NCBI GenBank assembly: GCA_036556665.1
Contig: DATBIX010000029.1
Location: forward strand, 6,429 to 70,428
Length of the DNA stretch: 64,000 nt
From: Acidimicrobiia bacterium
GTDB taxonomy: Bacteria; Actinomycetota; Acidimicrobiia; Spongiisociales; ZC4RG35
Reading direction: 5' to 3'
Shown: positions 2,689-37,940 of the stretch, piece after piece
Position numbering within the stretch: the stretch's first letter is position 1
Layout of the letters: each line of letters begins with the position of its first letter
Notes under the pieces: generated by a model
Told to the model about the DNA's origin: nothing
Seen by the model: only the letters and a program-made list of their open reading frames with translations
Databases searched by the model: none
Translations under genes and position numbers: made by a program

Positions 2689-3016
2689 GTCCGTCCGTTG
2701 ACAACACGAAGAGCGGGATCACCCGCTCGGTGCGGTCTTGATAGGTCCGGTAGAGCGGGAAGGCAGAGGTCACCAGACTCCACAGCCGTCCTCGCTCGCG
2801 GCCATCGACCTCTCGGGCGACCACCTCCCGGGTCTGGCTCCCCTGCTTCACCAGGGCTCGGGGATTCGAGCGCAGGTTGTGCGCCCATTGCGGGTCATGC
2901 TCCGCTCCTGCCCAGGATGCCACGACGACCAGCCGCTCCTCGTCCGGGTAGGCATAGAGACGCACGTCGCGGGCCATACCGCTCCTCCGCCCCGTGGTCG
3001 TGAGCGTGATCGTCAT
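2681..3016 (-). CDS. F420H2-dependent nitroreductase/quinone reductase (DDN family), short form
   Basis: LTTTGRRSG, VVVASWAG, PQWAHNLRSNP, YQDRTERVIPLFVL. Confidence 0.85.
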   Translation of the reverse strand: MTITLTTTGRRSGMARDVRLYAYPDEERLVVVASWAGAEHDPQWAHNLRSNPRALVKQGSQTREVVAREVDGRERGRLWSLVTSAFPLYRTYQDRTERVIPLFVLSTDGHV

Positions 3017-3035
3017 CGCGGCACGTTATCGAAAG

Positions 3036-3049
3036 GGGACTTCCGGCCC
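3036..3049 (+). promoter_or_regulatory. DosR/DevR-like box upstream of hemerythrin-like gene
   Basis: GGGAC-TTCC-GGCCC; 24 nt later GATAGT (-10-like, 3074-3079), then 6 nt to ATG 3086. Confidence 0.6.
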
Positions 3050-3085
3050 TTCCCCGACGGAGTCACTGGATCAGATAGTTGGGTC

Positions 3086-3553
3086 ATGAGCTCGACACTC
3101 CAGCACGATTCCCCGAGCCCACTGGTCAGGGCCAACCACCGCCGACGCGCTCTCCATGAGGCGATGACCCGGCTCGAGGGGGCAATCGCCCGGCCGGTCG
3201 CCTCCGATGACTGGCTCGCCGAGGTCGATAGCGGGATGAAGGCGGTCACCAACGGTCTGCAGGCGCACATCCAGGAGGTCGAGGGGCCCGAAGGCATCAT
3301 CGCCGACATCGTGGACGTCGCCCCACGTCTCAGCGCGGCTGCCACCGAGCTGGCCAACGAGCACCACGGGATAACCGCGGCGATGCGCCGAGCCGAAACG
3401 GCCCTCGAGGCCGCCCGCCGTGGGGGTGCGACCGAGAAGACGCTGCTCCGCCGCCGGGTCACCACCCTGCTCGGACGGCTCACCATTCATCGACAGCACG
3501 GCTCCGACCTGGTGTACGACGCCTACAACATCGACATCGAGGCGGGTGACTGA
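3086..3553 (+). CDS. hemerythrin-like four-helix protein
   Basis: ATG 3086 in ORF 2738..3553; LHEAM, AHIQEVE, LANEHHG, IHRQHGSD His/Glu pattern. Confidence 0.6.
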   Translation: MSSTLQHDSPSPLVRANHRRRALHEAMTRLEGAIARPVASDDWLAEVDSGMKAVTNGLQAHIQEVEGPEGIIADIVDVAPRLSAAATELANEHHGITAAMRRAETALEAARRGGATEKTLLRRRVTTLLGRLTIHRQHGSDLVYDAYNIDIEAGD

Positions 3554-6441
3554 CCTCCTGGGGCACGGCGATCGTCCCCCGACCAGACTGAGGCCTCGCC
3601 TTCGGTGCCCAGTCGCCGGGCGATCAGCTTCCGCAGCTCGGCTGCCCAGAGCACAAGGCTCGCCAGCGCGATGCAAATCGACCAGTCACGCGGTCCGAGC
3701 GGGACAGTGCCGAAGGCCTGATTGAGCCACGGGGCTTGGACCACCGCGACCTGAAGGAGCCCCGACAAGGCAACCGCACCCCAAAGCCACCCATTCGTGA
3801 ACAGGCTCCTGAAGGCGCTGCTTCGATCCGATCGTGCGTTGAAGCAATTGAACAGTTGGGCAAAGACCAGGGTGGTGAAGGCCATCGTGCGCGCCTCGTC
3901 GATCGTGCCGGTTCCCTCGAAGAGCCCACCGGGGAGCCCAAGGTCGAGGGCGGTCAACGTGACCACCGCCATCACCAACCCGACCCAGATGATCCCGATC
4001 CACATCTCCTTGTCGATGACCCGCTCGGTGAGATGCCGGGGTGGCCGGAGCATCACGTCGTGGGGGGGCGGCTCGACGCCCATGGCAAGTGCGGGCCCTG
4101 TGTCGGTGAGCAGGTTGATCCACAGGATCTGGGTGGCGAGAAGCGGCACGGCCACCGCCCCTCCCGCCTGTTCCAGCCCGATCACCCCGGCCAGGACCAC
4201 CCCGAGGAACATGGTCAAGACTTCCCCGGTGTTGGACGACAGGAGGAAGCGAAGGAACTTCCGGATATTGGCGAAGATGCCCCTCCCCTCGCGCACGGCA
4301 GCGATGATCGTGGCGAAGTTGTCGTCGGCCAAGACCATGTCAGAGGCCTCTTTGGTCACGTCTGTGCCGGTGAGGCCCATGGCCACGCCGATGTCGGCTG
4401 CTTTCAGCGCAGGGGCATCGTTCACCCCGTCACCGGTCATGGCGACGATGTTGCCCTCGGCCTGAAGTGCCCTGACGATCCGCAGCTTGTGCTCGGGAGC
4501 GACTCGGGCGAAAACGGTGGCACTCCTCACCACCGCACTCAGCCCATCGTCGTCCATCTCCTCCAGCTCGGAGCCGGTGACGACTGCCTCTTGCTCGGAA
4601 ATGCCCAGGTCCCCCGCGATCCGGGCCGCGGTGAGTGGGTGGTCGCCGGTGATCATCAGGATCCGGATCCTCGCCTCGAGGGCGTCGGCCACGGCGGCCC
4701 GCGCCTCGGGGCGGGGCGGATCGATGATCCCAACCGTTCCCAGGTAGATCATCTCCTGCTCCACGGCATCTTCGTCACTGCTGCTCGCCCCATCGGGGAG
4801 AGGGCGGTAGGCAACGGCCATGGTTCGCAGTGCCTGACCGGCGAGCCGGTCGACCGTGGCGAGTATCTGTCGGCGGCGCTCCTCGGTGAGCGCTCGCTTT
4901 TCGCCCGCCACCAGCTCCAGGGTGCATCGGGCGAGAAGGACGTCGGGCGCCCCTTTGGTGACCACGTCGACCTGACCGTCACGCTCGGCGTCGGCCTGCA
5001 GGGTGGTCATCAGCTTCCGCTCGGAGCTGAACGGGATCTCACCGACTCGCCGGAATCGGGCCTCGCGCGACGCGGTGAGCCCGAGTTTCGCCTCGGCGAC
5101 GAGGAAGGCGCCCTCGGTGGGATCGCCATGGATCACCCATTCACCGTTCTCCCGACGCAGGACCGCGTCGTTGGCCAGGCTGCCTCCCATCAAGACCAGG
5201 CCGACCTCCTCGAGGAGCGGCCCCTCAGGTATTGGCTCATCCCCCGCCAGCACCTCGCCCTCCGGCCGGTAGCCGGTGCCGGTCACGTCGACCTCCCCCG
5301 ACGGAGTCGCCACCTTCACGAGGGTCATCTCGCTTCGGGTCAGAGTGCCGGTCTTGTCCGAGCCCACCACCGAGGCCGAGCCGAGCGTCTCGACCGACGA
5401 CAGCTTCTTGACGATGGCGTTCTTGTGAGCCATGCGTTGCACGCCGAGGGCAAGCACAAGGGAGAGGACAGCGGGGAGACTCTCTGGCACCGCGGCCACC
5501 GCAAGGGACACCCCCACCAACAGCACCGCGACGAAGTCGGCGGGCTCCCGGATCTCGCTGCCGAGGAGGATCGTGCCCACGACCACCGCGGAGATGATGA
5601 TCACAGCGATCCCGAGGGCACGGCCGATGGCGTCTACCTCGCGCTGCAGTGGCGTGCGCGCCTCCTCGGTTGTATCGAGGAGCCGAGCGATGTTTCCCAT
5701 CTCACTGGCCATCCCGGTGGCCGTCACGATGGCGCGTCCCCGGCCTCTGGTCACAGCGGTGCCGTTGAACACCATGTTGGTCCGGTCGCCGAGAGAGGAG
5801 GGCTCGTCGAGAGGAGCCGTGCTCTTGCTGACCGGCTCACTCTCACCCGTCAGCGACGCCTCGGCCACCATCAGGGACGCCACGTCGAACACCCTCGCAT
5901 CTGCGCTGACCGCGTCACCCTCGGCGAGGAGCAGGACGTCTCCAGGCACGACTTCGACGGAAGGCACCTGCATCTCCTCGCCATCGCGCAGGACGGATGC
6001 AGATGTCGAAGCCATCTCCTGTAGCGCGGCCACCGCGCGCTCGGCGCGCGCCTCCTGAACGTACCCGAGGATGGCGTTGGCGATCACGATCACCAGGATC
6101 ACCAATGCCTCGAAGGGCACGTCCTCGGCTCCCTCGATGGCCCAGACCGCGAGAGACACCACGACTGCGGCCAGCAGGAGGTAGACCAGCGGGTCGGCGA
6201 GATGGGAGAGGAACTTGCGCCAGCGTGGGACCGGTGGCTCCGATTCGAGCCGGTTCGGCCCGAATCTCTCCAGACGGGCCGATGCGTCACCCGGCGTCAG
6301 GCCACGGCTGGTCTCACAACCCAGCCCTGAGGCCACCTCATCCGCCGAACGCAACCAGGGCTGATCGGGAAGGGCTGTCTCGACCGGGGTCTCGGGCACG
6401 TCGAAACGGTAGGCGACCAGGGTGGGTGTCTCGGGAGACAC
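3523..6441 (-). CDS. cation-translocating P-type ATPase, P2A (Ca2+/CtpF-like)
   Basis: TGES, DKTGTLT, KGAPD, GDGVND; TM4 VPESLP, TM5 SSNTGE, TM6 INLLTD. Confidence 0.92.
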   Translation of the reverse strand: MSPETPTLVAYRFDVPETPVETALPDQPWLRSADEVASGLGCETSRGLTPGDASARLERFGPNRLESEPPVPRWRKFLSHLADPLVYLLLAAVVVSLAVWAIEGAEDVPFEALVILVIVIANAILGYVQEARAERAVAALQEMASTSASVLRDGEEMQVPSVEVVPGDVLLLAEGDAVSADARVFDVASLMVAEASLTGESEPVSKSTAPLDEPSSLGDRTNMVFNGTAVTRGRGRAIVTATGMASEMGNIARLLDTTEEARTPLQREVDAIGRALGIAVIIISAVVVGTILLGSEIREPADFVAVLLVGVSLAVAAVPESLPAVLSLVLALGVQRMAHKNAIVKKLSSVETLGSASVVGSDKTGTLTRSEMTLVKVATPSGEVDVTGTGYRPEGEVLAGDEPIPEGPLLEEVGLVLMGGSLANDAVLRRENGEWVIHGDPTEGAFLVAEAKLGLTASREARFRRVGEIPFSSERKLMTTLQADAERDGQVDVVTKGAPDVLLARCTLELVAGEKRALTEERRRQILATVDRLAGQALRTMAVAYRPLPDGASSSDEDAVEQEMIYLGTVGIIDPPRPEARAAVADALEARIRILMITGDHPLTAARIAGDLGISEQEAVVTGSELEEMDDDGLSAVVRSATVFARVAPEHKLRIVRALQAEGNIVAMTGDGVNDAPALKAADIGVAMGLTGTDVTKEASDMVLADDNFATIIAAVREGRGIFANIRKFLRFLLSSNTGEVLTMFLGVVLAGVIGLEQAGGAVAVPLLATQILWINLLTDTGPALAMGVEPPPHDVMLRPPRHLTERVIDKEMWIGIIWVGLVMAVVTLTALDLGLPGGLFEGTGTIDEARTMAFTTLVFAQLFNCFNARSDRSSAFRSLFTNGWLWGAVALSGLLQVAVVQAPWLNQAFGTVPLGPRDWSICIALASLVLWAAELRKLIARRLGTEGEASVWSGDDRRAPGGQSPASMSML

Positions 6442-6484
6442 CGAGGTCTCCCAGGTGGCCGGGCCTTTCCAGGACGAAGACCGA

Positions 6485-8104
6485 TCAGCCTTCCACGATC
6501 ACCTTTGCCCTCATCCAGGGGTGAGGAGTGCAGAAGTACTCGAACTCACCGACCTCGGTGAAGGTGTAGCTGAACGTGGCGCCCGTCTCGAGGAATCCTG
6601 AATCGAACGACCCGTCCACCGCAGTGACCGTGTGCATCTGACCCTCGTCGTCGTTGGTCCAGGTCACGGTGGTGCCGACACTCACCGTGAGCGTGTTGAC
6701 GGAGTAGTCCGCGGGGTCCTCCGTGGCTTCGAACTCGTCGGGTGCGCTCAGATCCTGGGTGGTCCATGCACCGGGGAGTATCGAGACGCTCTCACCGGTG
6801 GCCGCACCCTCGGTGGTCCCGGTCATCTCGTGACCGCCCGCTGCCGCCTCACCGGTCCCGGTGACATCCTCGAAGATCTCCGGATTCGGATCGCCCGAGA
6901 TGACTATCTGACCGATGGCTCCCTTGTCGACTGCCCGGGCCAGCGCGTGGTCGACGAGGACGACGGTCGAAGGGACCTGACCGATCAGCTCCACGACGGT
7001 CCCTCCGCCGGCCGGGACCAGAGTGGTCTGCGAGCCGCGCAGAGGTGGGTTCAAGAGAGCCGCCTCGGGATAGACCTTGTCCCAGTGGGACCCGATGGGG
7101 TGGAAGTTGGAGTCGAGGTTCAGGCCCGCGTTGATGAAGTACAGGCGGGCACGCTCGCCCACAGCCATCTGCAAGGCGTTGTCCCCGGTGAGGGAGCCGA
7201 CGGCTCCGTTGAACACGACGAACGTCGGAGCCTCGTCGGTCACCGCGGCGCGATCGAACTCGACGACACCCGGCTGCCGGTCGACGGTGTAGTACTCGGA
7301 CTGGACCATGTACCACTCGTGAGCCACTACGGGTAGCGGGTCCTCGGGGTCGACCAGGATCCCACCGAACATCCCGTGTGAGATATGGGCCGGGATGTCC
7401 CCGTAGGCGCAGTGGTACATGAAGAATCCCGGATAGAGGAGGCGGGCTTCGATGGTCTTGGTCTCACCGGGAGCGACTGTCGTCGCTTCGGCGCCGCCAC
7501 CCTGGCCGGTCACCGAGTGGAAGTCCACGTTGTGCGGGTTGTGACTCGTGGACGGGTTGGTGATGGTGAAGCGAAGGACATCGCCGACACGGGCCCTGAT
7601 CACCGGTCCCGGGGTGCCAACGACCAGGCCGTCGGGGCCATCGAGAAGGCGATATCCCCAGGTCTCGGTCTCGATCCCCGTGGCGGGGTCGATCGTCGAA
7701 ATCCCCTCGACCACCTCGAAGTGGACCTCGACGATCGCCTGGTCCGCCCGACCCGACGGGGGAGGCATCTGTGGTGCGATGGCGACGTTGACCTCGTCGG
7801 ACGGCACGACAGAGAGTTGGTCCTTGGGCATCAGCGTCGGCATGACGTCCTCCGGGAGCTCCACGGTCCCGGCTACGTCGCCCGATGCCAGATAGGCGTC
7901 GATCCTGTCCGAGACGATCGCGTCGTCCACGGAGTCACGACTGGCGGTGATCATGAGCGAGGCGACGCCTATGCCCACCGCGATGAGAGTCCCAACGATT
8001 CCGAGGGCCACCAGAGTGCCCAGTGTGTAATGCGGGTGTGGAGGTGGGGGCGGCGGCTGCGTGTGGCCGGGTTGGGCTTGTGCACGATCCACTGTCTGCG
8101 CCAT
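6485..8104 (-). CDS. nirK: copper-containing nitrite reductase with N-terminal TM anchor and C-terminal cupredoxin domain
   Basis: HNVDFH, YHCAYGDIPAHISHGMFG, NFHPIG; C-terminal HTVTA...YFCTPHPWM type-1 Cu site. Confidence 0.9.
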   Translation of the reverse strand: MAQTVDRAQAQPGHTQPPPPPPHPHYTLGTLVALGIVGTLIAVGIGVASLMITASRDSVDDAIVSDRIDAYLASGDVAGTVELPEDVMPTLMPKDQLSVVPSDEVNVAIAPQMPPPSGRADQAIVEVHFEVVEGISTIDPATGIETETWGYRLLDGPDGLVVGTPGPVIRARVGDVLRFTITNPSTSHNPHNVDFHSVTGQGGGAEATTVAPGETKTIEARLLYPGFFMYHCAYGDIPAHISHGMFGGILVDPEDPLPVVAHEWYMVQSEYYTVDRQPGVVEFDRAAVTDEAPTFVVFNGAVGSLTGDNALQMAVGERARLYFINAGLNLDSNFHPIGSHWDKVYPEAALLNPPLRGSQTTLVPAGGGTVVELIGQVPSTVVLVDHALARAVDKGAIGQIVISGDPNPEIFEDVTGTGEAAAGGHEMTGTTEGAATGESVSILPGAWTTQDLSAPDEFEATEDPADYSVNTLTVSVGTTVTWTNDDEGQMHTVTAVDGSFDSGFLETGATFSYTFTEVGEFEYFCTPHPWMRAKVIVEG

Positions 8105-8514
8105 CAGTTGCCTCCTTGGAGCTCGGTCTGCAACACGAAGACCTCGTCGAAGCCATCATCGAGAACGCGCCTGGCTTCCACCCAGATGGCGTGGATGGGA
8201 CAGGAGATGTCTCCAGGGCACGGGGCATCCCGGAGGACGCACCGCCCACTGGCCGAAGGCCCCTCGGTGGCTTCGATCACCTGGAGAAGACGGGCCTGGT
8301 GGGCCGACTCGGTGAGCTCATAGCCCCCTCCGGGTCCTCGCCGGGAAACGACCCAGCCTCCCCGGACCAGGCCCGCCATGACCTGGGGCAGGAACGAGGA
8401 CGTGGTACCGATCGAACGGGCGAGCTCGGCTCGGCCCAGCCTCCCACCGGCCTCGAGGAGTGCCCGCATAGCCTCGAGGGCGAGATCGGTGCGACGGCTG
8501 AATGTGATGTTCAT
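8104..8514 (-). CDS. Rrf2 family transcriptional regulator with three Cys (Fe-S type)
   Basis: SRRGPGGGYEL; C-x6-C-x5-C (CVLRDAPCPGDISC); ATG 8514; TGATG overlap with nirK. Confidence 0.9.
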   Translation of the reverse strand: MNITFSRRTDLALEAMRALLEAGGRLGRAELARSIGTTSSFLPQVMAGLVRGGWVVSRRGPGGGYELTESAHQARLLQVIEATEGPSASGRCVLRDAPCPGDISCPIHAIWVEARRVLDDGFDEVFVLQTELQGGN

Positions 8515-8540
8515 TAGTTGTTGAGTCGACAACTGATGAA
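8510..8540. promoter_or_regulatory. 12-7-12 inverted repeat over the Rrf2 start (candidate Rrf2 operator)
   Basis: TTCATTAGTTGT-TGAGTCG-ACAACTGATGAA, 11/12 arm match, AT-rich in a GC-rich genome. Confidence 0.6.
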
Positions 8541-8552
8541 TTCGATCCAGTA

Positions 8553-8566
8553 GGGCCATTGGTCCC
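8553..8566. promoter_or_regulatory. DosR/DevR-like box between rrf2-nirK and mgtE
   Basis: TA-GGGCC-ATTG-GTCCC-TA. Confidence 0.6.
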
Positions 8567-8628
8567 TATCGGGGTCTCACGACGCCGGCGGCATGGCCCG
8601 AGACGGGACGCGCCCCTAGGTAACGTCC

Positions 8629-9624
8629 TTGGCCAGGAGCCAAGTCATCGAGTCTTCACCCCGGCCAGAGCCGACAAGCGAGAGCGCATTCGCCCTCGCC
8701 TCCACTCGTGTCCCCATCGCCGGTCGCCACGACACGGTGTCGGAGGTCCTCAGACGGCTCCGCGCCAATGGACGGCTCGAGACCATCGCCGACATCGCCG
8801 TGGTCGAAGACGGCCATCTGCTCGGGCTGGTCCCCATCGAGGATCTCCTCGCCGCTCCAGACGACGCGGTCGCCGCCACGCTGATGGATCCCGACCCGCC
8901 CCTGGTTCGGCCCGGTGTCGACCAGGAGGTGGCGGCCACCAAGGCGGTCACACGCGGTGAGAGCAGTCTGGCCGTGGTCGACGAGGACGGCCTCTTTCTC
9001 GGCCTGATCCCTCCGCATCGGATGCTCAGCGTCCTGCTGGAGGAGCATCGGGAGGACCTGGCTCGTCTCAGCGGGTACCTGCATCAGAGCGAGTCGGCGC
9101 GGTCAGCCAGCGAAGAAGGTGTCGCCCTTCGCCTTTGGCACAGGTTCCCCTGGCTGGTGGTAGGGCTGGCTTCGGCGATGGCGGCAGCCGTCATCGTCTC
9201 GGGCTTCGAACAGGGCCTCGCCTCCCACATCGAGCTGGTGTTCTTCATCCCGGGAATCGTCTACATCGCCGATGCGGTGGGAACGCAGACAGAGGTCCTG
9301 GTGGTGCGAGGGCTGTCCGTCGGCGTCTCGGTCCGCAGGATCGTCGGCAGGGAGCTTGCCACCGGATTGGCGCTCGGGCTCATCCTCGGCATCCTCGCCT
9401 TTCCCGCAGTGCTCTACTGGGTCGACCGGCCGGTGGCGTTGACGGTGTCGACCAGCATTTGGGCCGCATCGACCGTGGCGACCCTCGTCGCCATGGCCCT
9501 CCCCTGGCTGCTATCACGGGCCGGGTTGGACCCGGCTTTTGGGAGCGGGCCGCTGGCGACGGTGATCCAGGACCTGCTCTCCCTGGCCATCTACTTCGCC
9601 TTTGCCGGCCTGTTCGTGCTCTGA
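8629..9624 (+). CDS. mgtE: magnesium transporter MgtE-like (CBS pair + TM domain, no MgtE N-terminal domain)
   Basis: CBS repeats ([25 protein letters not shown]), [25 protein letters not shown]; start uncertain. Confidence 0.85.
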
Positions 9625-10626
9625 TCGGCCCGAGACGACGAGAACGGCGGCACCGGTCACCCTGTCCTGGGCCAGGTCGAGCAGGGCCCGACTCGCCTCG
9701 GAGAAGTCGTAGGCCACGGTGGTGGGCCTGATCGGGATGCGCGCGGCGATGTCGAGAAACTCACGGCCATCCTGACGGGTGTTGGCAGTGACCGACCTGA
9801 TCTGACGCTCCTCGAACAGCCATCGATACTCGAGCGCCGGGATATCGGTCAGGTGGATGCCGGCGATCGCCAACGTGCCGCCCCTGTGCAACGCCCGCAA
9901 AGCGGGCGGGACGAGATCCCCGACCGGGGCGAATAGGATGGCGGCATCGAGTCTCTCCGGAGGCTCGTCATACGCATCTCCCGCCGAGGAGCATCCCAGG
10001 TCCAGGGCCAGTCGGCGCGCCTCCTCAGACCGGGTCATCACATGCACCGTCGCCCCCTGGTAGATGGCGATCTGAGCGGTCAGATGAGCGGAGCCTCCGA
10101 ACCCGTAGATGCCGAGCCGTCCCCCTGGTGGCAACTCGGCACGGCGAAGGGCGCGATATCCGATGATCCCGGCGCAGAGCAAGGGAGCAGCCTCGTCATC
10201 GCTGAATACCTCCGGTATGGCATAGGCGTATCCCTCGGCCACGACCGCGTGCTCGGCGTATCCCCCGTCGGCGTCCCAGCCGGTGAACTCCGGTGACACA
10301 CAGAGGTTCTCAGAGCCGGCGAGGCACCACGGACAGGCGCCGCAGGTCTGCCTCAGCCAGGCGATCCCGACCCTGTCCCCGACTCCGAAGCGACTTGCCC
10401 CGGGGCCGATCGCATCGACCACTCCGACCACCTCGTGGCCCGGCACCACCCGGGCCCGATGGACTGGCAGATCACCCTCGACCACGTGGAGATCGGTGCG
10501 ACACACCCCGCACACCGAGACCCTGACCCTGATCTCGCCTCGACCCGGCGATGGCGTGGCCACGTCGGCGAGTTGGAGCGGTTCGCTCTCCATCGGTCCG
10601 GGGGTGTGAACCTGCCAGGCGCGCAT
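9514..10626 (-). CDS. zinc-binding alcohol dehydrogenase family protein
   Basis: [23 protein letters not shown]...ENLC, YGFGGSA. Confidence 0.92.
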
Positions 10627-16221: not shown

Positions 16222-18984
16222 GTGCTCCCCGGGCCCTCACTGATGGTGCCGAGCCGGCAAGACCAGGCCGACGTAGCCGAGATGGCAACCGAGGAGGTCT
16301 ATCGGGCCCTCGGCACATCGCCGTCGGGTCTGACCCAGGAGGAGGCGGCCGAGCGGCTCGCCGTTCATGGCCCCAACACGATCAGCCCGATCTCACGGAG
16401 ACGCCTCGTATCGAGGCTCCTGTCGAACTTCGTGCACGTGATGGCGATTCTGCTTTGGGTTGGCGGCGCCGTTGCGTTTCTCGCCGATCTGCCGCAGCTC
16501 GGAGTGGCCATATGGGTGGTCAACGTGGTCAACGGCATCTTCAGCTTCTGGCAGGAGTTCAAGGCGGAAAAGGCGACGGAAGCCCTGCTCCGCCTTCTCC
16601 CCTCCACGGCCACGGTCCTTCGGGAAGCGGTGCTCGAGCAGGTGGATGCCACCGCACTCGTACCCGGCGACGTGGTCTTCATCGAAGAGGGTGACCGCAT
16701 CTCGGCCGACGGCCGGCTGGTGGAGCACGTGGCGCTGCGCGTCGACCAATCCACCCTCACCGGCGAGTCACGCTTGGTCCGCAAGGCCTCGGATCCGGTC
16801 GACACGGCAGGAAGGAGCCGCCTCGAGCTGCCCAATCTGGTGTTTGCCGGTACCACGGTGGGGTCGGGGCGGGGAAAGCTGGTCGTCACCTCGACCGGGG
16901 CCGGGACCGAGCTCGGCGGCATCGCCGCCCTGACCGGGTCACTGGCCGACACCCCCAGCCCCCTCCAGCGCGAGTTGAGGAGGGTCAGTCTCACTGTCAG
17001 CATCGTGGCGATCGGTGTCGGAGTGGTCTTCTTCATCCTGGCGCTCGCCCTGGGTGGTTTGCCCCTGGCCACCGGCTTCGTCTTCACCCTGGGGATGATC
17101 GTCGCCTTCGTCCCCGAGGGGCTCCTCCCCACCGTGACCCTCGCTCTCGCGATGGGCACCCAGAGAATGGCGGCACGCAACGCCTTGGTGAGGAAGCTGT
17201 CGGCGGTGGAGACCCTGGGGTGCACAACGGTGATTTGCACCGACAAGACCGGCACACTGACTCAGAACGAGATGACCGTCCGCTCGGCCCTCGTCGGCGG
17301 TCGGCGATATGAATTCGAGGGAGTCGGGTACCAGCCTGAGGGTCGGATCCATCCCGGGCCGGACGATGGCCTGGTCACACTTCTGGCCACCGCGGCTCGC
17401 GCCTCCAATGCGCGCCTGGTGCACAACGATGGAGACACCGGGAGACTGACCGTGGTCGGCGACCCGACCGAGGGCGCAATCCTCACCGCCGCAATGAAGG
17501 CGGGAATCGATCTCGACGTCCTGAGCTCGGATGCTCCCCGCGTCGCCGAATGGCCGTTCGACCCGGTTAGGAAGCGAATGAGCTCCGTGGCGCGCATGGG
17601 CGGGGAGTTGGTGGTCGCGACGAAGGGGGCTCCCGCCGAGCTCCTCGAGCGCTGCTCCTCACTCCATTCCGCCGATGGAACGCTGGCCCTCGAAGTGGAC
17701 GACCGAAAAGGGATCATCCAGGCGGTGAATGCGGCTGCGGCCGAGGGCCTGAGAGTCCTGGGGGTTGCACGTCGGGTGATCGACCATCTCCCCGATGAGC
17801 GCGAGGACTTCGAGATCGACCTCGAGTTCATCGGGCTGGTCGCCATGCACGACCCGCCGAGACCCGAGGTCGAGGCGGCCATCGCCAGTTGTAGGAGCGC
17901 GGGCATCCGGATCGTGATGATCACAGGGGACTATGGGATAACCGCTGAAGCGATCGGGCGCAGGATCGGCATGGTCGGTGAGGGCCAGGTGAGGGTGGTC
18001 AACGGCGACGAGATGGACGCCATCGATGACGCCGCCCTCGGCGCGATCCTGGACGATGAGGTGATCTTCGCCAGGGTGACCCCTTCTCACAAGATGCGGG
18101 TGGTCGCCGCTCTCCAGGATCGCGGTGCGGTGGTTGCGGTCACCGGGGACGGGGTCAACGATGCCCCGGCTCTCAAACTGGCCGACATCGGGGTCGCCAT
18201 GGGGCAGTCCGGCACCGACGTCGCCCGGGAGGCAGCCGACATCATCCTGCTCGACGACAACTTCGCATCGATAGTCGCCGCCATCGAGGAAGGGCGGGCC
18301 GTCTATGACAACATCAAGAAGTTCACGACCTACATCCTCACGTCCAACGTGCCCGAAGCCGTCCCGTTCGTGGTCTTCGCATTCTCCGGTGGGCGAATCC
18401 CGCTCGCATTGGGCGTGATGCACATCCTCGCCATCGACCTGGGCACCGACCTCGCCCCTGCCCTCGCCTTGGGGGCGGAGCCACCCGAGCCTGGTGTGAT
18501 GGACCGGCCACCCCGCTCGCTCGATGCCCGACTCATCGACCGGCCCCTACTTGCCCGCGCCTATCTCCTGCTCGGGCCGGTCCAGGCGCTCTTTGTCATG
18601 ATTGCCTTCTTCGGGGCCTACCGCCTGCAGGGTGTCGAGGACTGGTCCAACCTGGCCTCGTCGGGGACGATCTATCTCGCCGCCACGGCAATGGCGCTGG
18701 CAGGGGTGGTGACCACGCAAATCGGCAATCTCTTCGCCCAGCGATCGGCTCGGGTCTCGCTGCGCCGTATCGGTCTGGGAGGCAATCGCCTTCTCTGGTG
18801 GGGGATACTCTCCGAAGTGGTGGTCATTCTCCTCATCGTCTATCTGCCCCCGCTGCAGAGGGTCATCGGCACGGCTCCGTTCCCGCCGATCGGGTGGGCC
18901 TGGCTGCTTCTCGGAGTCCCCCTGCTGCCGCTGGCCGACGAAATCAGGAAAGCGCTCACCGCCCACCGGGGAAGAGCACGATGA
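16222..18984 (+). CDS. cation-translocating P-type ATPase, P2C (Na+/K+- or H+/K+-ATPase)-like
   Basis: TGES, DKTGTLT, GDGVND; IVAFVPEGLLPTVT, YILTSNVPEAVPF, ILAIDLGTD; start may be ATG 16243 or 16282. Confidence 0.88.
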   Translation: MLPGPSLMVPSRQDQADVAEMATEEVYRALGTSPSGLTQEEAAERLAVHGPNTISPISRRRLVSRLLSNFVHVMAILLWVGGAVAFLADLPQLGVAIWVVNVVNGIFSFWQEFKAEKATEALLRLLPSTATVLREAVLEQVDATALVPGDVVFIEEGDRISADGRLVEHVALRVDQSTLTGESRLVRKASDPVDTAGRSRLELPNLVFAGTTVGSGRGKLVVTSTGAGTELGGIAALTGSLADTPSPLQRELRRVSLTVSIVAIGVGVVFFILALALGGLPLATGFVFTLGMIVAFVPEGLLPTVTLALAMGTQRMAARNALVRKLSAVETLGCTTVICTDKTGTLTQNEMTVRSALVGGRRYEFEGVGYQPEGRIHPGPDDGLVTLLATAARASNARLVHNDGDTGRLTVVGDPTEGAILTAAMKAGIDLDVLSSDAPRVAEWPFDPVRKRMSSVARMGGELVVATKGAPAELLERCSSLHSADGTLALEVDDRKGIIQAVNAAAAEGLRVLGVARRVIDHLPDEREDFEIDLEFIGLVAMHDPPRPEVEAAIASCRSAGIRIVMITGDYGITAEAIGRRIGMVGEGQVRVVNGDEMDAIDDAALGAILDDEVIFARVTPSHKMRVVAALQDRGAVVAVTGDGVNDAPALKLADIGVAMGQSGTDVAREAADIILLDDNFASIVAAIEEGRAVYDNIKKFTTYILTSNVPEAVPFVVFAFSGGRIPLALGVMHILAIDLGTDLAPALALGAEPPEPGVMDRPPRSLDARLIDRPLLARAYLLLGPVQALFVMIAFFGAYRLQGVEDWSNLASSGTIYLAATAMALAGVVTTQIGNLFAQRSARVSLRRIGLGGNRLLWWGILSEVVVILLIVYLPPLQRVIGTAPFPPIGWAWLLLGVPLLPLADEIRKALTAHRGRAR

Positions 18985-28635: not shown

Positions 28636-29735
<1,100 letters not shown>

Positions 29736-29739
<4 letters not shown>

Positions 29740-31051: not shown

Positions 31052-31813
<762 letters not shown>

Positions 31814-31824
<11 letters not shown>

Positions 31825-33109
31825 ACGCGAGATCGAGGTCGGCTACCTGGCCCGGGTCGAGGGCGAGGGGGCCATGTACTTGAAGCTCGATGGGGATGAG
31901 GTCCTCGACCTCGAGTTCCGGATCTTCGAGCCGCCCCGATTCTTCGAGGCATTCCTCCAGGGCCGCCGCTTCTCCGAGGCACCCGACATAACCGCGCGCA
32001 TCTGCGGGATCTGCCCCATCGCATACCAGACCAGTGCCTGCAACGCCATGGAGGTGGCCGCAGGAGCCCGGCTCGTGGGAGGTCTCCGCGACCTGAGACG
32101 CCTCATCTACTGCGGCGAGTGGATAGAGAGCCACGCCCTGCACGTCTTCTTCCTGCATGCTCCTGACTTCCTCGGCTACGAGAGCGCGATAGCCATGGCG
32201 GGCGAGCATCCCGATCGGGTCGCCACCGGGCTGCGGCTCAAGAAGGTGGGAAACGGGATCATGACCCTTCTCGGAGGACGCGAGATACACCCGATCAACG
32301 TGCGGGTCGGTGGGTTCTACCGGGTCCCGACGAGAGCCGACCTGCTCGCCCTCGTCCCCGACCTCGAATGGGCCCTGGAAGCAGCCATCGAAACGGTCGA
32401 CTGGGTCTCGAGCCTGCCTTTCCCCGACTTCGAGCGTGACTACGAGTTCGTCTCACTGAGCCATCCCGACGAATACCCGATTCACGAGGGCCGGATCGTC
32501 TCCAATCGCGGCCTCGACATCGGAGTCGATGAATGGGAGGAGCATTTCGAGGAAAGTCACGTCGCTTGGTCAAACGCGCTGCACGCCCGCCGGCAACCGG
32601 GAGGAACGGCCTACCACGTCGGACCGATGGCCCGTTACTCGCTCAACTTCGAGAAGCTGACCCCCCGGGCCGGCGCGGCTGCCCTCGCTGCCGGCCTCGA
32701 GGAAACCTGCCGCAACCCGTTCCGCAGCATCGTGGTACGGGCGGTCGAGATCGCTTTTGCGTGCGAGGAGGCCCTGCGCCTCATCGACGGCTACTCCATG
32801 CCTGACAGCCCGTTTATCCACGCCGAGCCGCGCTCGACCGTCGGCCACGGCGCCTCCGAGGCGCCACGCGGGCTGCTCTATCACCGTTACACGATCGATG
32901 GAGAGGGATTGATCACCGACGCACACATCGTCCCGCCCACTTCCCAGAACCAGCTGAGCATCGAGGACGACCTGCGCGCCTATGTGCCCGGGCGGGCCGG
33001 TCTCCCCGATGATCGCCTCCAGTGGGAGTTGGAGCAGGCGATTCGCTGCTACGACCCGTGCATCTCCTGCGCAACGCATTTCCTCGACCTCACCGTGGAG
33101 AGACAGTGA
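31814..33109 (+). CDS. hydA: group 3b [NiFe]-hydrogenase large (alpha) subunit
   Basis: RVEGEG, L1 [11 protein letters not shown]2 [10 protein letters not shown] plus short cleavable tail. Confidence 0.93.
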
Positions 33110-35266: not shown

Positions 35267-36355
35267 TCAACCGGGGCCCGGGGCGAGCTCGACCCCGATC
35301 TCGGTTGCCTTGATCGAGACCCAGATACGGTGGCCGGGTGCCAGGTCGAGCTCGTCGGCAGCCGCCGTGGTCACCTCGGCGGTGAGGGGAAGAGGCTGGC
35401 CGACGGCGACCCGGGCTCGCTCTCCCAGACGCTCGACCGCCCCGATCGTCGCCTCCCATGAGTTGCGCGGGCTGCCCTCGGGCCTGGAGCGATGGAGCGA
35501 GATCGCCGAGGGTCTGATGCTGACCAGCACCTCGCCGGAAAAATCCGGGTCTGCAGTCTGGAGGAGGTGGCCACCTGCGTCCACGGTCCCATCGGAGGCA
35601 TACCCGACGAAAAGGTTGGAACCGGCCAGATCTGCCGCATACGACGTTCGAGGTCGGAGTCGGATCGCCTCAGCGCTCCCGACCTGGGTGATCCGACCAT
35701 CCTCGATGATGTGGATCTCGTCGGAGAGGAGGAATGCCTCGGCCGGGTCGTGAGTGATCATGAGACGGGGGCCGGCGAAGGCGGTGAGATGCTCCGCCAG
35801 CTCCCTGCGCAGCTTGGCCCGGGTGGTCACGTCCAGTGCCGAGAGTGGCTCGTCCAGAAGCAGCATCCTCGGCTCGGTGACCAGAGCACGGGCCAGCGCC
35901 ACACGCTGAGCCTGACCACCGGAGAGGGACCCAGGCTTCTGCTCGGCAACTCGATCCAGGCCAAGCCGGTCGATCCAGCCTCTCGCCCTCCACCTCGCCT
36001 CCTCCCGGCCGAGACCGTGGTTGCGGAGCCCGAAGGCGACGTTGTCGACGACGCTCATATGGGGGAAGAGCAGGTAGTCCTGGAAGACGACGCCCATGCC
36101 CCGCTCCTCAGGTGGCACGAAGACGCCTGTCTGTGGATCATCGAGCACGTCTTCCCCCAGACGGACACACCCGCTGTCCACGGGGATCAGACCGGCCAGA
36201 GCTGCCACGGCAGTCGACTTGCCCGCCCCGTTGGGCCCGAGCAACGCCACTGTTCGCCCGGGAGGGATGGACAGTTCGATGTCGAGGAGGAACGACTGGC
36301 CGTGCCGGACGTCGAGCCGAGCTTCGAGCTCTCCGCTCACAGTGCCTTCCACCAT
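35267..36355 (-). CDS. modC: molybdate ABC transporter ATP-binding protein with TOBE domain
   Basis: GPNGAGKS, LSGGQ, LLDEP, C-terminal TOBE. Confidence 0.88.
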   Translation of the reverse strand: MVEGTVSGELEARLDVRHGQSFLLDIELSIPPGRTVALLGPNGAGKSTAVAALAGLIPVDSGCVRLGEDVLDDPQTGVFVPPEERGMGVVFQDYLLFPHMSVVDNVAFGLRNHGLGREEARWRARGWIDRLGLDRVAEQKPGSLSGGQAQRVALARALVTEPRMLLLDEPLSALDVTTRAKLRRELAEHLTAFAGPRLMITHDPAEAFLLSDEIHIIEDGRITQVGSAEAIRLRPRTSYAADLAGSNLFVGYASDGTVDAGGHLLQTADPDFSGEVLVSIRPSAISLHRSRPEGSPRNSWEATIGAVERLGERARVAVGQPLPLTAEVTTAAADELDLAPGHRIWVSIKATEIGVELAPGPG

Positions 36356-37149
36356 CGTTCGCGTAGGGCGATCAGCACCGCCAGAGAGACGACCACCATG
36401 AGCAGGCTGAGAGCCACCGCTGTGTCGCGATCGCTCTCCAAGGCGACGAACACAGCCAGTGGCAGGGTCTGCGTCCTCCCCTGAAGGTTGCCGGCGAAGG
36501 TGATCGTGGCCCCAAACTCACCGAGGGCCCGGGCCCAGGTCAACACCAGCCCGGCGGCCAGCGATGGCGCGATCATCGGCAGCGTCACTCTGCGCAGGAC
36601 GGTCCATTGCCCGGCACCGAGGGTGGCGGCGGCTCCCTCGTAGCGCCGGTCCAGATTGCGCAGGGCGCCCTCGACCGTGATCACGAGGAATGGCATGGCC
36701 ACGAAGGTGTTGGCCACGACCACGCCCCATGTGGAGAAGGGCAACAGCAGGCCGGTCGCTTGGTTGAGCGGCTCGCCGACGATTCCCCGTCGGCCCAGGG
36801 CAAACAGCAGCGCGGCCCCTCCGACGACCGGGGGCAGGACCAGAGGCAGGGTGACGAAGCCTCGCATCAGCCATCGGCCCGGAAACTCGACCCTGGCCAT
36901 CAACCAGGCGAGGGGCACCCCGATGACGAATGAGAGGGCGGTGGCGGCCAAGGAGGTGGTGATCGAAAGGCGAAGGGCTTGGGTCACGAGCTCGCTCGAG
37001 AGGAGTGATGGAAGCTCGCCCCAGGGCACCCGGGCGAGCAGGCCGAGGAACGGGATCACGAAGACCGAGAGCCCGAGACATCCCAGCACGATCAGCAGGG
37101 CTGGGGGCCTCATGAGGCGCCGCCGCTCCCCGGTCGTTGCTCGGGTCAA
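36337..37149 (-). CDS. modB: molybdate ABC transporter permease
   Basis: LPLVLPPVVGG, ARALGEFGATITFAGN, TQTLPLAV. Confidence 0.9.
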   Translation of the reverse strand: MTRATTGERRRLMRPPALLIVLGCLGLSVFVIPFLGLLARVPWGELPSLLSSELVTQALRLSITTSLAATALSFVIGVPLAWLMARVEFPGRWLMRGFVTLPLVLPPVVGGAALLFALGRRGIVGEPLNQATGLLLPFSTWGVVVANTFVAMPFLVITVEGALRNLDRRYEGAAATLGAGQWTVLRRVTLPMIAPSLAAGLVLTWARALGEFGATITFAGNLQGRTQTLPLAVFVALESDRDTAVALSLLMVVVSLAVLIALRERWWKAL

Positions 37150-37940
37150 GGTGAGGTGAAACCGTACTCGTCGAGGATCTCCTGGCCCTCGGCCGAGAGA
37201 GCGAACTCCACGAACGCCGCCGCCCCATCAGGGTTGAGCCCCCCAGCCAGGTGGACGATCGGGTAGGAGGCGACCACGTTGTGCTCCTCGGGGATGGACA
37301 CGCCTTCCACCATGCCCCCCGCCGCCAGCACGTCTGTGACATAGGTGATCCCGGCATCGAGCTCCCCTGCCTCGATCTTGGTCAGCAGCGCCCTGACGTC
37401 CGGCTCATTGGTGTCGATGACGGGGGTGACACCCGCCTTCTGCAGCGCCTGAAGGCCGAAATCGCCACAGGGCACGCCCTCGGCGCACAGACCGATCAAG
37501 AGGTCCTCCCTGGCGAAGTCCTCGAGACCGGTCACACCGGCCGGGTTGCCGGCCGGGACCGCGATCTGCAGGAGGTTGGTGGTGAAGACCTCGGGCTCTC
37601 CCGCCGCTTCGCCCGCCTCGACCACCTGGTCCATGTTGGTGGTGTTGGCGGAGGCGAACACGTCCGCCGGAGCCCCTTCCAGGATCTGCTCCCGCAGCGC
37701 CGAGCTGGCGCCGAGGTTGAGAACGACGTCGAGATCCGGATTGGCCACCTCCAAGGCCGACTCGAAGTCGGCAAAGGCATCGGTCAGCGAAGCGGCCGCC
37801 GACACGAGCAGCTCGCCGCTCGGCTCGGACACGGATCCGGTCGTCGTTGCTGTCTGCCCATCCGTGGCGGCGCAGGCCGAGCCGGCCAACGTCAGGGCTA
37901 CGACCACTGCCGATGAGAGCCGGCGCAAGACTTCCTCCAT
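37146..37940 (-). CDS. modA: molybdate ABC transporter substrate-binding lipoprotein
   Basis: AAASLTDAF, GASSAL, GAPADVFASA, VPCG, YVTDV. Confidence 0.92.
   Translation of the reverse strand: MEEVLRRLSSAVVVALTLAGSACAATDGQTATTTGSVSEPSGELLVSAAASLTDAFADFESALEVANPDLDVVLNLGASSALREQILEGAPADVFASANTTNMDQVVEAGEAAGEPEVFTTNLLQIAVPAGNPAGVTGLEDFAREDLLIGLCAEGVPCGDFGLQALQKAGVTPVIDTNEPDVRALLTKIEAGELDAGITYVTDVLAAGGMVEGVSIPEEHNVVASYPIVHLAGGLNPDGAAAFVEFALSAEGQEILDEYGFTSP

Follow-up and report, generated by a model that had tools for sequence, protein, structure and literature searches.

A 64 kb stretch of DNA (the whole of it hereafter referred to as the window; G+C ~66%) from an uncultured soil Acidimicrobiia bacterium carries a nirK gene whose product is described here with respect to its domain organisation, its distribution and its probable function. 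The product of 539 residues consists of a hydrophobic helix, a stalk, a NirK core, an acidic linker and a C-terminal cupredoxin, in this order, and the gene for an Rrf2-family regulator lies directly upstream on the same strand (Table 1). Judged by its sequence, the product fits a three-domain (class III) copper nitrite reductase (CuNiR) with a C-terminal cupredoxin, a complete His2-Cys-Met set of copper ligands being fused after the core. A preliminary description of the gene had listed an N-terminal transmembrane (TM) helix, the full set of type-1 copper (T1Cu), type-2 copper (T2Cu) and catalytic residues, an acidic linker and a second T1Cu domain ending in CTPHPWM; each of these elements was found in its place, and the agreement is far beyond chance.

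The start of nirK is well supported, since a strong AAGGAGG stands at a spacing of 6 nt before the ATG (8104-8102) and this ATG overlaps the stop codon of the Rrf2 gene (TGA, 8106-8104) as TGATG. In the translated product, Pfam recognises cupredoxin domains of the multicopper-oxidase type at residues 159-254, and residues 465-538 match its plastocyanin/azurin-type domain PF00127 (E=1.9e-11).

Table 1. Features of the nirK gene, of its product and of the remaining window. Positions are those of the window; residue numbers refer to the nirK product.
Feature	Position	Strand	Basis or remark
nirK fusion open reading frame (ORF)	6485..8104	-	ATG to stop, 539 aa; Pfam, NCBIfam and PDB matches
Residues 1-26, Pro/His-rich tail, presumed cytoplasmic	8027..8104	-	sequence, alignment
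HPHY, residues 23-26	8027-8038	-	motif H-P-H-[YF]
Residues 27-55, uncharged hydrophobic helix	7940..8026	-	Kyte-Doolittle hydropathy, conservation, AlphaFold2
Residues 56-110, acidic juxtamembrane stalk	7775..7939	-	12 D/E, 3 K/R
Residues 111-412, two-cupredoxin-domain NirK core, class II AniA-like	6869..7774	-	profile, PDB, alignment, Foldseek
Residues 413-465, acidic K/R-free tether	6710..6868	-	sequence, alignment, AlphaFold2
GGHEM, residues 429-433	6806-6820	-	motif G-G-H-x-M
Residues 466-539, C-terminal T1Cu cupredoxin	6488..6709	-	Pfam, NCBIfam, PDB, alignment
Shine-Dalgarno sequence AAGGAGG	8111..8117	-	6 nt before nirK ATG; read directly from the sequence
Rrf2-family regulator, upstream of nirK	8104..8559	-	PF02082, E=3.5e-23; translationally coupled to nirK
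P2-type cation ATPase	3523-6441	-	Cation_ATPase_N/C, PEGL-like motif; 43 nt downstream of nirK
Second P2-type cation ATPase	16222-18984	+	Cation_ATPase_N/C, PEGL-like motif
4Fe-4S dicluster protein (Fer4_22)	28636-29739	+	near the hydrogenase-like ORF
550-aa ORF, partial [NiFe]-hydrogenase large subunit match	31457-33109	+	PF00374, E=4e-22, two stretches
Three-gene ABC transporter: SBP_bac_11, permease, ATPase with TOBE	35267-37940	-	arrangement typical of molybdate or sulfate uptake

The NirK core and its C-terminal cupredoxin

The core matches the NCBIfam model TIGR02376 over residues 110-414 (E=5.8e-82, 275.6 bits). In a search of PDB the best match was AniA of Neisseria gonorrhoeae (1kbv, E=2e-73), the three-domain enzymes of Ralstonia and Pseudoalteromonas were also among the top matches, and the class I enzymes AcNiR and AxNiR were matched at ~1e-39. 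The corresponding core identities obtained with Foldseek are 42-44% to AniA, about 40% to the core of the Ralstonia enzyme (RpNiR) and 29-31% to the class I enzymes, and on its sequence the core can be assigned to class II (AniA-type) NirK. An AlphaFold2 (AF2) monomer built from an alignment of close relatives only (67-82% identity) was poor, with a predicted local distance difference test score (pLDDT) of 58; the monomer built from a diverse alignment reached a pLDDT of 86.7 and a predicted template modelling score of 0.67, and Foldseek superposed the AF2 model on AniA with a template modelling score of 0.94 and a root-mean-square deviation (rmsd) of 1.6 Å, in keeping with two Greek-key cupredoxin domains of the NirK fold. 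A homotrimer with T2Cu at the subunit interfaces is expected by homology.

The T1Cu ligands of the core (H191, C232, H240 and M245) align with those of AniA, and the predicted T2Cu ligands are H196, H231 and H386, H231-C232 forming the Cys-His bridge. The catalytic Asp (Asp-CAT) and His (His-CAT) are D194 and H335, and the sensing loop H191-N-V-D194-F-H196 is canonical. Among 36 relatives with 67-82% identity, D194 is invariant and H335 nearly so, and the same holds for the whole set of seven core ligands, two catalytic residues and four ligands of the C-terminal domain, which are invariant or nearly invariant; these residues are largely retained in an alignment of 45 sequences that extends down to 31% identity. 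A reading of the core as a multicopper oxidase was also considered and is ruled out by H-C-A in place of H-C-H and by the lack of HxH motifs.

The C-terminal domain has the predicted copper ligands H491, C525, H528 and M531, contained in QMHTVT...CTPHPWM and invariant in the 36 relatives. The loop is conserved as C-x-P-H-P-W-M, and its residues P527, H528, P529 and W530 are likewise invariant, as would be expected for a constrained electron-transfer port. The domain matches the amicyanin model TIGR02657 of NCBIfam over residues 467-538 (E=3.6e-16), its score of 59.3 bits falling short of the equivalog cut-off of 110.2. When the C-terminal 136 residues alone were searched against PDB, the best match was Nmar_1354 of Nitrosopumilus maritimus (9CCK, E=5e-20), with amicyanin at ~2e-12 and the cupredoxin-tethered TsNirK of Thermus scotoductus at E=6e-4. 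Pairwise identity is 56% to the dangling cupredoxin of Nmar_1354 and 43% to amicyanin (77 residues). The label amicyanin-like, which the preliminary description had given to this domain, is apt in terms of both identity and the shared C-x2-H-x2-M loop (CTPHPFM in amicyanin of Paracoccus, CTPHPWM here), although the nearest solved relative is the dangling domain of Nmar_1354 and not amicyanin. Amicyanin is a free periplasmic carrier for methylamine dehydrogenase, whereas the C-terminal domain is fused to NirK, and no mau or methylamine dehydrogenase genes are present among the annotated ORFs of the window.

Putative membrane anchor, stalk and tether

The N-terminal tail of 26 residues has almost no positive charge and is followed by the hydrophobic segment, for which the Kyte-Doolittle maximum in windows of 19 residues is 2.34; the AF2 model has a helix at residues 28-55, matching this segment, and the TM helix is kept among the 36 relatives. 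Residues 27-55 would therefore be read as a signal-anchor with an N-in/C-out topology. The stalk contains a conserved R-[ND]-SVDD motif close behind the TM helix and a short predicted helix at residues 61-73. A strong TM helix is found in the relatives from Acidimicrobiia and Nitriliruptoria, and those from Chloroflexota and Ilumatobacter have mostly lipobox-like signals (LAAC, LAGC, LVGC). Membrane retention looks selected, because relatives without the TM helix carry lipobox-like motifs in its place.

Another explanation of the same segment is that it constitutes a long cleavable Sec signal peptide and that the mature enzyme is soluble or associated with the cell wall. Signal peptides of actinobacteria are often long, and I-T-A|S, a possible signal-peptidase site after the hydrophobic segment, fits the -3/-1 rule of signal peptidase I; the ~29 uncharged residues, however, go far beyond a typical h-region, and the tail that precedes them is nearly without positive charge. 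The conservation of the helix and of R-[ND]-SVDD behind it, together with the lipobox-like motifs of the helix-less relatives, also speaks for an anchor, and cleavage is considered rather unlikely, though not to be dismissed.

Immediately ahead of the TM helix, on what is presumably its cytoplasmic side, stands an invariant H-P-H-[YF] motif, which is confined to the TM-anchored near subclade of Acidimicrobiia.

The linker between the core and the C-terminal domain (residues 411-465) has 12 D/E and no K/R. Its segment VSI..GAW..QD...DEF (residues 438-460) is conserved and predicted to form a beta-strand. The tether also holds a G-G-H-x-M motif that is conserved in the near subclade only, a sporadic HDM being seen outside it (P0133, P0140 and L029); the motif may take part in copper handling or gating, or have no such function. 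A role of G-G-H-x-M and HPHY as copper-handling motifs of the whole family is unsupported, both being confined to the near subclade.

Distribution of the architecture and its known relatives

A search over about 5.8 billion proteins gave 1839 matches at E<=1e-10. The best 120 of these were inspected; they are 67-100% identical, all share the same length and domain set, and those with an organism name come from metagenome-assembled genomes (MAGs) of Acidimicrobiia. More than 120 clusters (90% identity), drawn from numerous independent contigs and sources, contain the same continuous ORF, which is also found in dozens of reference MAGs. The locus is nearly intact in 24 soil and rhizosphere metagenome runs (79-99% of sampled words). 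The chance that the ORF is an assembly or frameshift artefact joining nirK to a separate cupredoxin gene, for which nothing was found to speak, is practically nil in view of this recurrence, which refutes it.

An exhaustive HMMER scan of 1.84 billion cluster representatives yielded 433 matches at E<=1e-30, and the best 150 were classified by motif. These include 71 core-only NirKs, 11 with a C-terminal cupredoxin, two with a C-terminal haem, three with an N-terminal cupredoxin, four with an N-terminal haem and about 40 proteins with cupredoxins only. In the set with a C-terminal cupredoxin, P0121 and P0131 have single TM anchors, and archaeal-looking forms occur with a C-terminal TM segment (P0139) or a twin-arginine signal (P0147). 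Some members of the set have unusual organisations: in P0123 the N-terminus is a polytopic membrane domain of ~230 aa and the loop of the C-terminal domain reads CAPHPWA, Ala taking the place of the axial Met; P0127 has a DsbB-like N-terminal membrane domain with a CKLCW motif, and P0133 two tandem C-terminal cupredoxins. The cupredoxin-only proteins (P0129, P0134, P0138, P0141 and ~35 others) lack a NirK core, and many are 570-1150 aa long with 5-10 tandem copies; these copies are related to the C-terminal domain of the nirK product, have loops such as CAIHPDM, and in several of the proteins are accompanied by a terminal hydrophobic segment.

Among the species genomes of GTDB, the full architecture was found in Acidimicrobiia (best 81% identity), Nitriliruptoria, Ca. 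Microthrix and Ilumatobacter and, within Chloroflexota, in Limnocylindrales, Chloroflexia and Thermomicrobiales; in Verrucomicrobiota, Gemmatimonadota and other phyla the similarity of the relatives is limited to the core. The fusion is widespread, and the full architecture is common in Acidimicrobiia, Nitriliruptoria and Chloroflexota. In many Acidimicrobiia and Chloroflexota of soil and rhizosphere, this seems to be the usual form of nirK.

The C-terminus varies within this lineage. Most of the extracted loci encode the cupredoxin, four Chloroflexia loci (72% core identity) have no such domain and L034 has a cytochrome c (CAACH). In a core-only neighbour-joining tree, a rough one without support values, the domain-less Chloroflexia and the cytochrome c group (L034, P0125) are nested within cupredoxin-bearing lineages. 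In the simplest reading of these sequences the C-terminal cupredoxin would be ancestral and was later lost or replaced by another one-electron carrier, which is what would be expected if the domain served as an electron-entry module. The related Acidimicrobiia NirKs with cytochrome c (L034, P0125) and with cupredoxin (L025, L029, L031) share the TM motif WQFALLFAV..., and the difference between them suggests that the tethered carrier was exchanged recently. The presence of cupredoxin, cytochrome c or neither within one clade constitutes a natural experiment on module interchange.

A NirK with a C-terminal cupredoxin is not new in kind. The preliminary description knew fused NirKs with N-terminal cupredoxin or C-terminal cytochrome c domains only, which is outdated since the structure of TsNirK from Thermus scotoductus SA-01, a C-terminal cupredoxin-tethered CuNiR, was solved in 2019 (PDB 6HBE; Opperman et al. 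2019, PMC6400189). The amicyanin-like T1Cu of its C-terminal domain (T1CuC) and the core T1Cu are 14.1 Å apart within one subunit (PMC6400189; also PMC7201279, PMC13324648), nitrite reoxidises both T1Cu centres (PMC6400189), and relatives with extended C-termini, so far uncharacterised, are known from Fraserbacteria and Crenothrix (PMC6400189). The protein of the window has the same order of a two-domain core, a linker and a C-terminal T1Cu cupredoxin, the same C-x2-H-x2-M spacing and the same His2-Cys-Met site, and three Cu per monomer with transfer from T1CuC to the core T1Cu (T1CuN) and on to T2Cu would be expected in both. The two differ in several respects. TsNirK has Gln as the axial T1Cu ligand of its core, where the window protein has Met245, and a sensing loop H-G-L-S-I-H (Ser-CAT) as against H-N-V-D-F-H (Asp194); the overall identity to TsNirK is 24%, compared with 42-44% to AniA, and the C-terminal domain of TsNirK is barely related (E=6e-4). 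The linker is about 26 residues long in TsNirK and about 55 in the window protein, which has a TM anchor; the accessible part of the TsNirK description mentions none. Because core clade and cupredoxin subfamily differ despite the same domain composition, the fusions in the two lineages are probably independent. The architecture as such is in part already characterised through TsNirK, and the lineage of the window stands apart from it in core, cupredoxin subfamily and anchor. What is new here is the combination of a canonical class II core, a cupredoxin of the MCO4/amicyanin type and a membrane anchor in an uncharacterised but abundant lineage. A literature search found no paper specifically on this NirK lineage of Acidimicrobiia and Chloroflexota, which is no proof that none exists.

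Among solved structures, the C-terminal domain is closest to the dangling cupredoxin at the C-terminus of Nmar_1354 (MCO4), a multicopper oxidase with two domains (PDB 9CCK, 2025; PMC11761707); this cupredoxin is metalated and lies 13.5 Å from the core T1Cu (PMC11761707). Its loop is CTLHPWM, compared with CTPHPWM here, and both proteins are enzymes of the trimeric type with two cupredoxin domains and a tethered T1Cu domain. The archaeal Nmar_1354, however, has a linker of 15 residues and an O2-reducing core with a trinuclear T2/T3 cluster, converting NH2OH to HNO, whereas the bacterial protein of the window has a tether of about 55 residues and a NirK core with a predicted mononuclear T2Cu. 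The 56% identity between the two C-terminal domains raises the question whether the main reaction could be the oxidation of a nitrogen intermediate, such as hydroxylamine to NO or HNO. A precedent exists in the NirK of Ns. viennensis, which reportedly also forms NO from NH2OH (PMC6308003), and other denitrification genes are missing from the neighbourhood. Such a function is nevertheless very unlikely, as the core is of the NirK type (H-C-A, no HxH, Asp-CAT and His-CAT present) with no trinuclear cluster and is 42-44% identical to a bona fide nitrite reductase, AniA; the conserved Rrf2 neighbour would fit a control responsive to NO or nitrite, and the window has no ammonia-oxidation genes.

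AniA, which is lipid-anchored, is the best match of the core (1KBV, 5TB7); the two agree in their ligands and catalytic residues, and AniA is also attached to a membrane. Unlike the window protein, AniA has two domains, resides at the outer membrane (PMC4770552) of a diderm, obtains its electrons from separate cytochromes and has no tethered cupredoxin. The enzymes RpNiR and PhNiR (3ZIY, 2ZOO) share with the window protein a class II-type core and a one-electron carrier tethered C-terminally by a long linker; in RpNiR and PhNiR this carrier is placed about 10 Å from the T1Cu of a neighbouring subunit. In these periplasmic proteobacterial enzymes the carrier is a haem c domain, in the window protein a cupredoxin; the cytochrome c-tethered architecture is also represented inside the clade of the window protein (L034 and P0125). 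A survey of 267 NirKs in 2016 recorded C-terminal haem extensions and N-terminal cupredoxin extensions with or without TM segments but no class with a C-terminal cupredoxin (Helen et al., PMC4770552), and all the Actinobacteria sampled in it, such as Propionibacterium acnes, have NirKs with an N-terminal cupredoxin (PMC4770552). These actinobacterial enzymes resemble the window protein in being membrane-associated and in having an extra T1Cu cupredoxin, but the extra domain is N-terminal and some have a TM domain of ~400 aa, in contrast to the single N-terminal TM helix and the C-terminal cupredoxin found here.

The preliminary suggestion that a tethered donor would suit a monoderm cell finds circumstantial support in these data. 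The architecture is concentrated in Actinomycetota and Chloroflexota, is combined with a TM helix or a lipobox and has undergone an apparent cytochrome c swap; it is not exclusive to monoderms, as the TsNirK clade includes diderms (Thermus, Crenothrix) and archaeal-looking versions exist.

Proposed electron relay and gene neighbourhood

The protein is probably, though by no means assuredly, a membrane-retained extracytoplasmic nitrite reductase in which the tethered cupredoxin relays electrons to the core. It would catalyse the reaction nitrite + e- + 2H+ -> NO + H2O. The single N-terminal TM helix would keep the enzyme attached to the cytoplasmic membrane, on its outer side, in a monoderm Acidimicrobiia bacterium, and the acidic stalk of about 55 residues would raise the core above the membrane. 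The tethered centre T1Cu(C), presumed to be loaded with copper, would take one electron from a membrane-bound respiratory donor, with entry at the exposed His528 in the P-H-P-W patch; a conceivable donor is the dihaem cytochrome c that belongs to the bcc complex of actinobacteria. From T1Cu(C) the electron would pass to the core T1Cu and across the Cys232-His231 bridge to T2Cu, where nitrite would be reduced with protons supplied by Asp194 and His335. The co-transcribed regulator of the Rrf2 family, a putative Fe-S protein, probably controls expression in an NsrR-like manner. Circumstantial support for the relay comes from the replacement of the cupredoxin by cytochrome c within the same core clade.

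Several observations weigh against this proposal. The TIGR02376 score of 275.6 bits is just below the curated equivalog cut-off of 296.3, a narrow shortfall in a divergent clade that reflects no lack of any catalytic feature, and the possible signal-peptidase site described above bears on the membrane retention. A search of the 43 annotated ORFs of the window for nar, nor and nos genes and for an evident electron donor (cytochromes, free cupredoxins) found none, and the Rrf2 protein matches no NsrR-specific model, NCBIfam giving no NsrR equivalog hit. In the AF2 monomer the C-terminal domain is placed unlike that of 6HBE or 9CCK: superposition over three domains gave 24% identity and an rmsd of 18.6 Å to TsNirK (6HBE), and 26% and 23.5 Å to 9CCK. 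This placement is not trustworthy because of these large values. Tethering is in itself no guarantee of function, since the T1Cu of the N-terminal domain in HdNiR of Hyphomicrobium is about 24 Å from the core (PMC7201279, PMC13324648) and the tethered CuNiRs characterised so far are about 10-fold less active than two-domain enzymes (PMC7201279, PMC13324648); the purpose of tethering in CuNiRs is still debated (PMC13324648).

These precedents open a different role for the C-terminal cupredoxin, which may bind Cu and yet lie off the productive path, modulating substrate binding and potentials, guarding against reductive inactivation or stabilising the trimer. Such a role has been argued for the N-terminal domain of HdNiR with its distant T1Cu; it would also agree with the lower activity of tethered enzymes, with the altered Km and potentials of RpNiR from which the cytochrome domain was removed (PMC7201279, PMC13324648), with the Chloroflexia subclade that at 72% core identity manages without the domain, and with the lack of a reliable docking of the domain in the AF2 model. 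It is less easily reconciled with the invariance of the copper ligands and the P-H-P-W port, with the cytochrome c that stands in for the cupredoxin in a nested subclade, and with the extra T1Cu of the two nearest characterised analogues at 13.5-14.1 Å from the core T1Cu, and on the whole it is regarded as unlikely. A more elaborate version of the proposed relay for monoderm Actinomycetota and Chloroflexota, in which the enzyme is permanently built into a membrane respiratory assembly as its terminal module, the cupredoxin docks directly on a membrane-bound cytochrome (e.g. QcrC of the bcc complex) and moves on its long acidic tether between this donor and the core T1Cu, and the subclade-specific HPHY and G-G-H-x-M serve copper acquisition or gating, is speculative and held to be distinctly improbable. 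If true, it would amount to nitrite respiration or detoxification free of soluble carriers, widespread in soil and largely hidden by annotation.

The naming of the family differs between databases, JGI using 'nitrite reductase (NO-forming)' and NCBI mostly 'plastocyanin/azurin family copper-binding protein'. The NCBI name is probably due to the score just below the NirK equivalog cut-off, which suggests a systematic under-annotation of this nirK clade. Surveys based on NCBI names or on classical nirK primers may consequently undercount the NO-producing nitrite reducers in soil. With its canonical Asp-CAT/Met core and C-terminal cupredoxin, the enzyme would also offer a cleaner system for the effect of tethering than TsNirK, the only solved example, with its atypical Ser-CAT and Gln.

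The regulator gene likewise has relatives at other loci, an Rrf2 homologue adjoining nirK in ~22 of 37 related loci (tblastn); in Acidimicrobiia it lies upstream and shares the strand of nirK, and in Chloroflexota the two genes are divergent. The protein has C107, C114 and C120 in the usual cluster-binding region, and its true start is likely M16 (nt 8514), as the Pfam match begins at residue 21. Its PDB matches to IscR, RsrR and NsrR are all weak, ScNsrR (5n07, E=4.5e-5) ranking below IscR. Control of aniA and nirK by NsrR is known, and the label NsrR-like, with the NO sensing that it would imply, follows from the context of the gene, namely its adjacency to nirK. Together, nirK and the regulator gene give the impression of a module complete in itself, of the kind met with in many partial denitrifiers.

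Transcription was examined in three soil metatranscriptomes (runs X25-X27), in which contigs of at least 95% identity cover 6663-7129 and 7420-7994 of nirK and parts of the downstream genes; over the region 3000-10000 of the window, no contig of these runs covers the Rrf2 gene. The contigs are weak but positive evidence of nirK transcription, their depth being low and carry-over of DNA possible.

The ATPase gene downstream of nirK was considered as a source of copper for NirK and rejected, the protein being of the P2 type without an HMA domain and the synteny being limited to the nearest relative (L001/L002). Elsewhere in the window, the Fer4_22 protein and the [NiFe]-hydrogenase-like ORF may form a hydrogenase locus. 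The other genes, which include those for a MgtE-type transporter, ornithine carbamoyltransferase, Fur, CbiM and Amt, belong to housekeeping, transport and regulation.

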